Origin: Candidatus Iainarchaeum sp.
GTDB lineage: Archaea; Iainarchaeota; Iainarchaeia; Iainarchaeales; GCA-2688035
Length of the DNA stretch: 64,000 bases
Assembly (NCBI GenBank): GCA_017610205.1
Contig: JAFCCL010000002.1
Span: forward strand, 1-64,000
Reading direction: 5' to 3'
The notes under the pieces were generated by a model. That model ran no database searches and was not told the DNA's origin. It saw nothing but the letters and a program-made list of their open reading frames with translations. Positions 5,866-22,883 of this stretch are shown piece after piece (within the stretch, counting starts at the first letter, position 1; each line of letters opens with the position of its first letter). A program made the position numbers and the translations under genes.

Positions 5866-5918
5866 ATTAATCATGCAAACCAAATCCAATAAAGCTGCAA
5901 ACTTGTTAATTAATGTAT

Positions 5919-5991
5919 TGGGAAGTAGAGGATTTGAACCCCTGTCGGAGGACCCCCAGTCCACAATGCTACCAAACTACACCAACCCCCC
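5919..5991 (-). tRNA. tRNA-Pro (GGG)
   Basis: Cloverleaf GGGGGGT/ACTTCCC-A, anticodon loop CT-GGG-GG, T-loop TTCAAAT. Confidence 0.88.
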
Positions 5992-6053
5992 AATTGCTAC
6001 AATTTAATTGTGTGGAAAAGCTTTTAAAAAATGCAAAAAAAAGAAAAAGAAAG

Positions 6054-6126
6054 TGGGACCGAGAGGATTTGAACCCCTGCCGCAGCGTCCCAAACGCAGA
6101 ATCCTACCAGACTAGACTACGGTCCC
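6054..6126 (-). tRNA. tRNA-Pro (TGG)
   Basis: Cloverleaf GGGACCG/CGGTCCC-A, loop TT-TGG-GA, T-loop TTCAAAT. Confidence 0.92.
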
Positions 6127-6197: not shown

Positions 6198-6253
6198 TTC
6201 CCTTCAAACAATTTTCACCGGAAATCAATCCACTTGAATTTTTCACCGGAAAC
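6198..6253. repeat. ORB/mini-ORB-like repeats (candidate replication origin or operator)
   Basis: TTTCACCGGAAA at 6213 and 6241, with related ATCCACTTGAATT (6228) and TTCCCTTCAAAC (6198), in AT-rich intergenic DNA. Confidence 0.4.
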
Positions 6254-6423
6254 CTCGTCTCTTTCCTTTTGTTTTTAAACGCGTTAAACAAGATTATTTC
6301 AATTGATTAAAAAAAATTGGAGAGTGATGTTAATGAGAGCTTTTAGAGTGTGCAGGTTTGTTGAAGCCTATGGAAGCAAAGAAATTGTCAGGCCCTTGAT
6401 TTAGCTGGGTTTTTTTATTTTTA

Positions 6424-6536
6424 TTGCTTGGCAGGGCAAATGTAGGCAAATTGCCTGCACCTGCCGGCGTTACAATTAAAAGCAAGTGTCAGCGAGTGAA
6501 TTCGGTTGCCGAAAGGCAATCGTAATCGCGCCTCGC
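6424..6536 (+). ncRNA. Putative structured RNA (two stem-loop domains, GAAA tetraloop)
   Basis: GGCAGG/CCTGCC enclosing TGTAGGCA/TGCCTGCA; GCGAG/CTCGC enclosing CGGTTGCC-GAAA-GGCAATCG; G-U pairs favour the + strand. Confidence 0.55.
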
Positions 6537-6639
6537 ATAAAGGCAAAGGAGGTGGAAAAAAAGAAAATGGCCAGAGTGACCAAGTAAGCTACTACCAATA
6601 TATGTTAGTGGTTCAAAGTTTTTAATTGTTTTGGTGGCG

Positions 6640-6726
6640 GGTGACGTGCCAGAGCGGTTGAATGGACTTGGCTTATGACCAAGTAAGCTACTACCGGCTT
6701 CGAGGGTTCGAATCCCTCCGTCACCG
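6640..6726 (+). tRNA. Type II (long variable arm) tRNA with TAT anticodon and tRNA-Ser-like body
   Basis: GGTGACG/CGTCACC-G73, D-arm CCA-GAGCGGTTGAA-TGG, CTTGG-CTTATGA-CCAAG, V-arm AAGCT/GGCTT, GAGGG-TTCGAAT-CCCTC. Confidence 0.85.
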
Positions 6727-6795
6727 GCGGATTGTGTTAGGAAGCTTAACCATTCATCTATCACAATCCCTAAAAAATTCAAAGGAGGTGGAAAA

Positions 6796-7071
6796 ATGAG
6801 TTTACCAATAAAAAAGTTTGCTGTTGGAGGAATACAGGTTGCAGTATGGAAGAATGAAGGAAAGGAAGGAAGAAACTATTACAGTGTTTCTTTTGACAAA
6901 AGATACAAGGACAAGAATGATGAGTGGAAAAGCAGCAGTTCTTTGAAAGCAAACGACATTCCAAAAGCTGTTTTGGCTTTGGAAAAGGCATATGAGTTCA
7001 TTTCATTAAAGGAACCAGAGCAAACAGAAAACAAGGAACAGGAAAAGACGCTTGCGGCAGCAATGGCATAA
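6796..7071 (+). CDS. Small putative ss-nucleic-acid-binding protein (PC4/Whirly-like)
   Basis: Strong SD GGAGGTG; pattern GGIQVAVWKN...YYSVSFDKRYKDKNDEWKSS.SL...D then a helix; fold is inferred. Confidence 0.65.
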   Translation: MSLPIKKFAVGGIQVAVWKNEGKEGRNYYSVSFDKRYKDKNDEWKSSSSLKANDIPKAVLALEKAYEFISLKEPEQTENKEQEKTLAAAMA

Positions 7072-22630: not shown

Positions 22631-22633
22631 GAT

Positions 22634-22706
22634 TAGCCCCGCAGAGATTCGAACTCTGGTCCCAGGCTCCAAAGGCCTGTATCCTTGGCCACTAGACGAC
22701 GGGGCT
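22634..22706 (-). tRNA. tRNA-Gln (TTG)
   Basis: AGCCCCG/CGGGGCT-A with the archaeal Gln A1-U72 pair, loop CT-TTG-GA, TTCGAAT. Confidence 0.95.
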
Positions 22707-22781
22707 ATTCCGAATTTATTGTCCCGTCGTCTTCTTTTTTCGCAAACCTTTTTCCAAAAGGTTTACTAGACGACGGGGCTA
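22691..22781. repeat. 17-bp direct repeat of the tRNA-Gln 5' end flanking a hairpin-containing insert
   Basis: ACTAGACGACGGGGCTA at 22691-22707 and 22765-22781; inverted CCCGTCGTCT at 22723-22732. Confidence 0.9.
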
Positions 22782-22883
22782 GTACCTAAGAAAATTTAGA
22801 GAAGAAGGTATTTTAAATTTGATAATTAGGTTTTTTACTAACAATTTCGCTGCTTTTAAAGGAAAAAACAAGGCAATATCTTT

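Follow-up and report, generated by a model that had tools for sequence, protein, structure and literature searches.

The stretch of DNA analysed here (the window; 64,000 nucleotides (nt), positions 1 to 64,000 of contig JAFCCL010000002.1, assembly GCA_017610205.1, Candidatus Iainarchaeum sp.) carries a class-II tRNA gene, called X here, at positions 6640–6726 of the plus strand. The gene has the body of a serine tRNA and the anticodon UAU. We conclude with high confidence that X is a dispensable, selectively maintained tRNA-Ser paralogue with a sporadic distribution in the order Iainarchaeales; this confidence applies to the family, to the selection acting on it and to its redundancy. Rather than decoding in the ordinary way, X probably serves as a regulated, special-purpose tRNA. 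A partial copy of X, called P here, lies upstream at 6570–6596 and co-evolves with the gene, and a direct repeat brackets the whole cassette. The initial annotation of this stretch overlooked both. We tentatively propose that P is read on the minus strand as an antisense RNA directed at X. The host is a DPANN archaeon of the Iainarchaeota/Diapherotrites, and the window corresponds to contig C16 of its genome (G000 here; 1.37 Mb, 24 contigs, 92% complete).

ARAGORN identified an 87-nt tRNA at 6640–6726 (+) with the anticodon tat. With the Rfam tRNA model (RF00005), whose gathering score is 29, it reached 58.5 bits (E 4.6e-10), which places X among the tRNAs. In the ARAGORN drawing, the acceptor stem has 7 bp (GGTGACG/CGTCACC) and is followed by G73, the D-stem has 3 bp, and the D-loop contains GG. 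The CCA end is not encoded. The anticodon stem is made of 5 bp and closes the loop C-U-UAU-G-A, hence G37. The variable arm (V-arm) is 18 nt long, with a 5-bp V-stem and an unusually large loop of 6 nt. A single base (C) separates the V-stem from the T-stem, and the T-arm is canonical, with a 5-bp stem and a TTCRA loop. The intact class-II cloverleaf with a long V-arm, UAU, G37 and G73 that was described in the initial annotation is thus confirmed. We also considered an intron masking another anticodon. This was dropped, as ARAGORN returned the same 87-nt gene with introns allowed and inspection of the V-arm showed no seven-base loop.

Eight intact members of the X family were compared. Compensatory changes were seen in 17 of the 25 cloverleaf pairs, and 98.5% of the cells were paired. 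None of 500 shuffles scored as high, and sliding the register lowered the pairing to 32–50%. Among the five close orthologues, 6 of the 25 pairs are compensated. Since the pairs covary in this way, X is not a decaying pseudogene.

The identity of the body was assessed with nhmmer profiles made from 36 archaeal tRNA-Ser and 20 tRNA-Leu sequences of Iainarchaeales. All eight members scored higher with the Ser profile (28.9–58.3 bits) than with the Leu profile (20.3–40.7 bits), and the Ser profile was ahead by 8–18 bits. The window gene itself gave 42.6 bits (Ser) and 32.6 bits (Leu). The Ser body expected from the initial annotation was therefore found throughout the family. The class features of tRNA-Ser are present as well: a V-arm in all eight members and G73 in seven, with A73 in genome G005. 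None of the members carries a Ser anticodon (NGA or GCU); TAT, CAT, GAT, GAA and TAA are found instead. A single step, G35 to A, leads from NGA (Ser) to NAA, and a change of A36 to U then gives NAU. In our interpretation, X would be charged by SerRS.

The D-arm of the type-A X genes is that of many bacterial tRNA-Ser. Among 80 metagenome loci that contain the D-arm pattern, a tRNA lay over the match in 75, and all 75 were tRNA-Ser with Ser anticodons, which agrees with the bacterial tRNA-Ser type of D-arm recognised earlier. This bacterial set was picked by a pattern derived from X, and the high profile score of the type-A X genes against it is partly by construction. We discounted that score as evidence for a transfer of X from bacteria because of this selection. 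In the type-B gene of G073, the acceptor stem and nearly all of the D-arm are common to the host's own tRNA-Ser(GGA) (sequences read by eye).

A DNA search of 61 related genomes, the set used for the distribution of both X and the 91-amino-acid (91-aa) protein encoded next to it, gave full-length matches in G006 (93%), G014 (85%), G005 (84%) and G010 (81%); full-length matches thus occur in 5 of the 61 genomes. The locus is syntenic: X stands after two divergent tRNA-Pro genes and a small open reading frame (ORF), directly upstream of the 91-aa gene. At this one site the anticodon is TAT in G000, CAT in G006, GAT in G014, GAA in G005 and again TAT in G010. A covariance model revealed three further members. 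The X gene of G015 (GAA) is also upstream of a 91-aa gene. Those of G023 (TAA, G73) and G073 (GAA) each belong to another family and have other neighbours. A model (R2) scanned against 151 genomes of the class found 18 new loci, all of which were ordinary tRNA-Ser or tRNA-Leu. Two sets of 41 genomes, one related to G073 and one to G023, yielded three new loci, all ordinary. As these wider searches gave no more members, the X family is sparse and often lost. Its distribution is sporadic, with one match in family f2 (1/9) and one in family f5 (1/3). A viral origin was rejected after viral contigs were scanned with a V-arm/T-arm pattern, which gave two matches, neither of them a tRNA.

Some members weigh against a uniform role for the family. 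The X gene of G006 has C33, which does not fit uniform decoding, and that of G005 has A73, which does not fit uniform Ser identity. G007 holds a 5′-truncated remnant with the anticodon CAA. The congeners G001, G003 and G004 keep the small ORF and the 91-aa gene with no X between them; X is missing at the locus in three of six congeners.

In the five close orthologues, the anticodon loop varies at four of its seven positions, and the D- and T-loops are nearly invariant. The 6-nt V-loop is conserved. All eight genes keep a 7-nt anticodon loop with C32, A35, R37 and A38. A35 is unchanged in the G007 remnant too; with roughly nine changes distributed over the seven positions of the loop, we estimate that such constancy would arise by chance in about 1 in 4 cases, and it was not counted as evidence. 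The variable anticodon loop raises the question of whether X decodes at all. It could be a tRNA-shaped element that serves as an RNase P/Z processing signal or as a decoy for tRNA-binding factors, selected for its L-shape alone, with an anticodon that drifts neutrally and with P as a by-product. The nearly invariant D- and T-loops next to a changing anticodon loop, the C33 of G006 and the dispensability of X are consistent with this. RNase P RNA is present in G000, and in family f1 X sits between two genes on the same strand. However, the downstream gene in G073 is convergent, and the loop length, C32, R37, A38 and A35 are kept in 8/8 genes. A non-decoding element also leaves unexplained why P tracks X (see below) and why the V-loop is conserved. 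We regard this explanation as fairly unlikely.

The host does not depend on X for any of the codons concerned. ARAGORN, run with introns, found 45 tRNA genes in G000. These include a type-I tRNA-Ile(UAU) with A73 (C10:83383–83456), a tRNA-Ile(GAU), two CAU tRNAs, and tRNA-Ser with the anticodons UGA, GGA and GCU. A canonical tRNA-Phe(GAA) is encoded on contig C14 (8770–8885, minus strand). Its D-loop is interrupted by an insertion of about 34 nt (an intron); the gene was missed by ARAGORN and only partly seen by Rfam. Canonical-type Phe and Ile tRNA matches were also found in relatives. Because AUA is already read by an ordinary tRNA of the UAU type, X is supernumerary, and because canonical type-I tRNAs exist for the same codons, it is not needed for decoding. 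The initial annotation had turned to TiaS and to tRNA-Ile(CAU) as a guide to how AUA is read. TiaS (PF08489) was not found in G000 by a search that was positive in 4/4 control archaea; the two CAU tRNAs are there, together with the type-I tRNA-Ile(UAU).

An assignment of X to the archaeal AUA-decoding tRNA-Ile was rejected on two grounds. X has an 18-nt V-arm and G73, and not the type-I body and A73 of an archaeal AUA-decoding tRNA-Ile. Nor is it the sole reader of AUA with a conserved anticodon, as a second UAU tRNA exists and the orthologues carry CAT, GAT, GAA and TAT. ATA encodes Ile at conserved sites of the window, as had been pointed out before (8721, LRLGIGD; 17732, GTIRQD). Of the idea that X puts Ser at AUA, the Ser body with a non-Ser anticodon, intact and under selection, stands; a fixed role at AUA does not, given CAU, GAU, GAA and UAU among the orthologues. 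X might also be charged by the synthetase that matches its anticodon, namely IleRS, MetRS or PheRS, and be a harmless spare isoacceptor. These enzymes rely strongly on the anticodon, and G005 pairs GAA with A73, as this explanation would have it. However, G73 is found in 7/8 members where the enzymes expect A73, and the body is of class II. The anticodon also moves between amino-acid boxes within one genus, and canonical isoacceptors are present. A spare isoacceptor is thus highly improbable.

P (6570–6596; minus strand in the proposed reading) is a partial sense copy of X in which tRNA positions 9–15 are joined to positions 37–56. The repeat is exact over 20 nt (6577–6596 = 6676–6695), and the GCCAGAG before it corresponds to positions 9–15. 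From X, P takes the start of the D-arm, where it has a D-arm-like hairpin, together with the 3′ half of the anticodon stem, the 5′ half of the V-stem and the V-loop. It lies upstream of all eight X genes, including those of G023 and G073 in their other genomic contexts. Exact matches between the upstream region and its own X measure 11–20 nt in 8/8 loci; shuffled X sequences give approximately 6 nt. The own X is the best match in seven of the eight rows. The exception is G006, whose upstream region fits the G000 gene over 12 nt and its own over 11 nt. Substitutions of X that are specific to a lineage, and that are themselves compensated within the stems of X, are mirrored in P. An internal deletion of 21–22 nt in P is common to two genera, and on both sides of it P still follows the lineage-specific changes of X. 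The geometry varies little: four loci have the right end of P at −37 relative to X, and in the remaining loci it falls between −40 and −44. G000 has −44 because the 5′ strand of its acceptor stem is duplicated over 7 nt (GGTGGCG, 6633–6639, plus strand), an insertion seen only in G000 in a five-locus alignment. A small ORF over P (MARVTK in G000) was rejected as a coding sequence; it is not conserved, and G006 and G010 do not have its start codon.

A repeat of 17–22 nt from the Shine–Dalgarno (SD) region of the 91-aa gene brackets the 236-bp X cassette. The left copy is 22 nt long (6539–6560, plus strand), and the right copy (6775–6796, plus strand), in direct orientation and 91% identical, is the working SD region of that gene. 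In G001, G003 and G004 the repeat is single and the cassette absent, which corresponds to an empty site. Partial copies also flank four other tRNA genes of G000: Gln-UUG, Ser-GCU, Leu-UAG and Ala-GGC. The leader (22708–22785) of tRNA-Gln(UUG) (22633–22707, minus strand) repeats the first 17 nt of the tRNA exactly. It also contains a conserved hairpin (AAACCTTTT..AAAGGTTT) and, over 10 nt, runs antisense to the tRNA 5′ strand. Among 11 genomes, this insertion is clear in G000 and G001 (17 and 15 nt exact), and variants occur in G007 and G015 (10 and 9 nt); none was seen in the remaining seven. Upstream of tRNA-Ser(GCU) (C17:97754–97835) there is a copy of the first 15 nt and an 8-nt antisense piece. 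At tRNA-Leu(UAG) and tRNA-Ala(GGC) (C10:103540–103625 and C16:89480–89585), the last 20–22 nt are copied downstream after approximately 75 nt. The copies at the Ser(GCU), Leu(UAG) and Ala(GGC) genes may be scars of small insertions. Together, the other partial copies, the bracketing repeat and the empty sites show that a general insertion or duplication process acts on tRNA genes in this lineage.

These observations count against a dedicated role for P, as does the fact that the Gln leader copy co-varies with its tRNA in relatives. The copy beside X may itself have begun as an insertion or duplication scar. It is set apart by its presence at every member across three families, by its fixed geometry, and by its hairpin and U-run. 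The scar explanation can be extended to the entire locus: there would be no function beyond that of a tRNA gene, P, the 7-nt duplicate and the repeat would be scars, left by integration or slippage and kept alike by gene conversion, and X would be a surplus tRNA-Ser copy in slow decay. Apart from the scars at the four other tRNA genes, the presence or absence of the cassette among genomes, with its bracketing repeat, agrees with this, and so does the sporadic distribution of X. The locus of G007 resembles a deletion between P and X. However, compensatory change in 17/25 pairs across three families does not suit a decaying gene, and P with its deletion shared by two genera still follows the changes of X on both sides. 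Identity tracts of 7–20 nt, as seen here, are considered short for gene conversion. Scars without function are, in our judgment, quite unlikely to account for the locus.

In our preferred interpretation, P would be read divergently on the minus strand and give an antisense RNA of approximately 40 nt, the anti-tRNA. The free 5′ end of this RNA would pair with the conserved 6-nt V-loop of X. From there, pairing could spread into the V-stem and the anticodon stem on its 3′ side, so that X is unfolded or sequestered; the transcript would terminate at a hairpin followed by a U-run. Judged from sequence, we give this mechanism, with its minus-strand transcription and its pairing in vivo, somewhat less than an even chance. 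In G006, G014 and G005, the RNA predicted from the minus strand begins with an unpaired seed at its 5′ end, continues as a hairpin and closes with a U-run, a layout typical of small regulatory RNAs; the RNA of G000 has an additional small hairpin formed by its 5′ end. The duplex between the P RNA and X is predicted at −47 to −54 kcal mol−1 in G000, G006, G014 and G005 (type A, with the shortened copy), where G000 has −47 kcal mol−1, and it is strongest with the own X in seven of eight genomes. The complementarity in G000 extends over 20 nt and 7 nt, both perfect, as expected of an antisense-RNA target. Where P and X differ, there is a bias towards changes that preserve a G–U pair with the antisense strand (17 vs 6; binomial p 0.035). 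An oligo-A tract at 6556–6567, which is oligo-T on the minus strand, is a candidate terminator of the antisense RNA. A run of at least five A is found 0–20 nt to the left of P in 8/8 loci, compared with 14% of random 25-nt genome windows.

Two AT-rich boxes lie between P and X. AT box 1 (AATATATG, 6597–6604, plus strand) is a candidate TATA box of X. It is kept as AATATA in three of the five type-A loci, and its 3′ end is at about −29 in four loci and at −36 in G000; other tRNA genes of G000 have theirs at −24 to −30. AT box 2 (AAAGTTTTTAAT, 6615–6626) is identical in G000, G014 and G005, lies 18–21 nt from the right end of P, and could serve the minus-strand RNA as its TATA box or X as an AT-rich proximal promoter region. 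Approximately 12 variable bases separate the boxes. Since the two boxes are interleaved, X and the antisense RNA should be in competition for transcription.

Several results speak against the antisense mechanism. AT box 2 could belong to either strand by its sequence, and it resembles the plus-strand tRNA TATA boxes of G000, a genome in which tRNA genes commonly have AT-rich stretches immediately upstream. The copy–X alignments that gave the G–U bias also contain 21 transversions, and the G005 alignment is partly doubtful. In G006, the copy has three differences in the 17-nt core, or a gap with two T-to-C changes when a second aligner is used, and this is the genome in which the duplex with the own X is not the strongest. 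T-runs inside the copies of G015 and G023 would stop the RNA after 16–23 nt. Sequencing runs matching the locus comprised no RNA runs and seven DNA runs, with shares of 0.05–0.12.

P could also act in the other orientation, as a sense leader within the X transcript. It would gate folding or processing by binding the anticodon stem on its 5′ side and the V-stem on its 3′ side as these strands emerge. A competitor strand of this kind needs identity to X, which P has, and the leader copies at tRNA-Gln and tRNA-Ser(GCU) do lie downstream of their promoters. However, AT box 1, which separates P from X, is placed at the distance typical of TATA boxes, the small ORF upstream terminates in T-runs, and no conserved promoter was seen by eye upstream of P. 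The substitution spectrum leans the other way as well (17 vs 6). A sense leader is therefore distinctly improbable.

Directly after X, the initial annotation had noted a hairpin (6729–6769, plus strand). This trailer hairpin is real and conserved: in the five type-A loci, 8 of its 12 predicted pairs show compensatory changes. Its loop CCATTCA (6750–6756) complements both the D-loop of X and the D-stem on its 3′ side. The complement measures 10 nt in G006 (1/500 shuffles) and 11 nt in G014 (0/500). In G000, G005 and G010 it measures 7, 6 and 7 nt, which is not significant for any of them singly (G000: 72/500 shuffles). The complement always ends at tRNA position 26, and the base beside the D-loop AATGG complements the facing base of the hairpin loop in 5/5 genomes (G/C or T/A; by eye). 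It is possible that the trailer hairpin, through its complementarity to the D-loop, adds a brake in cis on the folding of X in this one family; the evidence for this is weaker than that for the partial copy. We also considered C/D-box and H/ACA guides for both the trailer hairpin and P. They were rejected after inspection by eye, rather than by a formal scan, since there is no RUGAUGA and only a CUGA 5′ of the complement.

The 91-aa ORF at 6796–7071 (plus strand) follows a GGAGGTG Shine–Dalgarno sequence, as described before, and encodes a protein of an uncharacterised family. It had been labelled PC4-like in the initial annotation and put forward as a partner of X. Searches of Pfam, NCBIfam and PHROG gave no match at E≤1, and a profile search of the PDB sequences returned only two unrelated rows with E>1 and no solved relative. 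The predicted model (pLDDT, predicted local distance difference test, 81.7) has four strands followed by a long helix (E-E-E-E-H). The top Foldseek matches were weak: Pur-alpha (E 0.16), the T5 PC4 homologue (E 0.38) and human PC4 (E 1.5), with template-modelling (TM) scores of 0.24–0.32. A wide structural search (VIA) gave HP0035, a YbaB-like protein, as the best hit (Z 5.7), and Pur-alpha had Z 3.5. The PC4-like label is thus unconfirmed: membership in the PC4/Pur-alpha/Whirly single-strand binders was rejected at the sequence level, where no profile matched, and a PC4-like fold is a possibility suggested by the model. Homologues of the protein are found in 41 of the 61 relatives and in many other Iainarchaeota. 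They also occur in bacteria, at loci (L135–L150) labelled Planctomycetota, Verrucomicrobiota, Nitrospirales and others. X is present at 5 of the 80 loci fetched with the protein and, as full-length matches, in 5 of the 61 relatives. The proposed partnership is not supported because the protein is far more widespread than X, and X occurs without it. The adjacency is a feature of one family and not of the X family.

The same data bear on the original idea that X is a Ser-charged mis-decoder of AUA (and AUG), or a tRNA mimic, that works with the 91-aa protein. The Ser-like body and G73 suit it, and gene and protein are adjacent in six genomes of one family. However, the anticodon is not fixed, the protein occurs alone in G001, G003 and G004, and X has other neighbours in G023 and G073. 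With the protein at 41/61 against 5/61 for full-length matches to X, X at only 5/80 protein loci, and PC4 membership unsupported, this explanation is very unlikely.

We compared X with known class-II tRNAs that carry foreign anticodons. X is an archaeal variant of such tRNAs. Allo-tRNAs, known from soil bacteria (Mukai et al. 2017; described in the available part of PMC7609411), have a 12-bp acceptor domain in the 8/4 or 9/3 form, a long V-arm, SerRS identity elements and mostly non-Ser anticodons, with UAU among the commonest. According to the same text, SerRS is indifferent to their anticodon, and some are suspected of being linked to mobile elements or toxin–antitoxin systems (PMC7609411). 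On this partial account, X resembles them in its long V-arm, Ser-type body and non-Ser anticodon. It differs in being archaeal and in its 7/5 acceptor form, and no co-evolving partial copy or antisense partner is mentioned for allo-tRNAs in that part of the source (PMC7609411). As covariation in both helices backs the 7/5 form, X does not have the defining feature of the allo-tRNAs.

A second comparison is with the nev-tRNAs of nematodes, which reportedly carry Leu and have Gly(CCC) and Ile(UAU) types among them. They are class-II tRNAs with an anticodon that is neither Leu nor Ser and are conserved in one clade (accessible part of PMC3333845). As far as this text goes, X is like them in joining a class-II body to a foreign anticodon and in being limited to a clade, and unlike them in that nev-tRNAs are eukaryotic and X is Ser-like with mostly G73. 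A human tRNA-Ser-AGA variant with G35A places Ser at Phe codons (as given in the portion of PMC12993449 available). The same single step yields anticodons of the GAA/UAA type in X; SerRS ignores the anticodon. On the material available, the G35A variants are sporadic alleles, whereas X is a family kept over family-level divergence, with a V-loop and flanking elements of its own.

The predicted anti-tRNA has a different set of counterparts. The antisense brakes of type I toxin–antitoxin systems and sRNA sponges are short RNAs that combine a free seed with a terminator hairpin and a U-tail and that complement one partner RNA encoded next to them. The anti-tRNA would share the free seed, the hairpin, the U-tail and the neighbouring target gene. 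It would differ in having a tRNA rather than an mRNA as its target, and also in its origin, which would be a sense copy apart from the target gene instead of that gene's other strand. A full-text literature search, with supplements outside its scope (those on allo-tRNAs might list archaeal or 7/5 cases), found no archaeal class-II tRNA with a foreign anticodon. Within the same scope, neither antisense partners of tRNAs nor a co-evolving partial copy for such tRNAs were found. Two features thus appear to be unreported for allo- and nev-tRNAs in the sources as available: the turnover of the anticodon within a genus under a conserved fold, and the co-evolving, antisense-like partial copy.

The biological role of allo-tRNAs and nev-tRNAs is still open. 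In the X family, selection holds the tRNA body while the anticodon crosses four amino-acid boxes within a genus. The unit is compact, with a tRNA, a candidate antisense partner and two interleaved candidate promoters, and the mechanism is testable. If charged by SerRS, X would place Ser at hydrophobic AUN/UUN codons when the brake is released, and it would be a natural system of regulated mistranslation in an archaeon with a minimal genome. A stronger form of this idea is a module resembling toxin–antitoxin systems, with Ser-charged X as a proteome-wide poison under the antisense brake. We consider this form improbable. If it were true, release of the brake by stress, infection or loss of the locus would put Ser at Ile, Met, Phe or Leu positions and stop growth, and the fast turnover of the anticodon would reflect selection on the codons that are targeted. 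For annotation, automatic pipelines will label X genes as tRNA-Ile, tRNA-Met, tRNA-Phe or tRNA-Leu.

Some further features of the locus were recorded. The two tRNA-Pro genes (5918–6126) are intronless in the window and contain introns of 18–69 nt in G006, G005 and G004. The small ORF after them encodes 23 amino acids (MRAFRVCRFVEAYGSKEIVRPLI, 6333–6404, plus strand) and has its own SD sequence and a T-rich terminator; relatives keep it as MSVFRLCRFVE... between tRNA-Pro(UGG) and the 91-aa gene. Upstream of this ORF, a 13-nt repeat (TTTTCACCGGAAA) occurs twice (6212–6224 and 6240–6252). The motif TTCACCGG is found at the same place in relatives and also near the X gene of G023, and may be a binding site for a regulator. 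A GC-rich, structured stretch (GGCAGGGCAAATG..CCTGCACCTGCC, 6446–6490) is common to G003 and G004 and is not found in G005 or G006. It is followed by ~70 nt (6490–6538) found only in G000.

Elsewhere in G000, two ARAGORN calls are possibly false: a tRNA-SeC(tca) with an intron (C1:14876–14967), to which Rfam gave a score of only 35.1 bits, and a tRNA-Stop(tta) with a 179-nt intron (C18:27866–28132). The motif ATGGCATCGAGC..GAAGATGGCAT stands directly upstream of the canonical tRNA-Ile(UAU) (C10:83300–83382), with no TATA-like box nearby. Looser look-alikes of this motif are seen upstream of tRNA-Tyr, tRNA-Gly(GCC) and tRNA-Asp, and one lies in an insertion downstream of X in G014.

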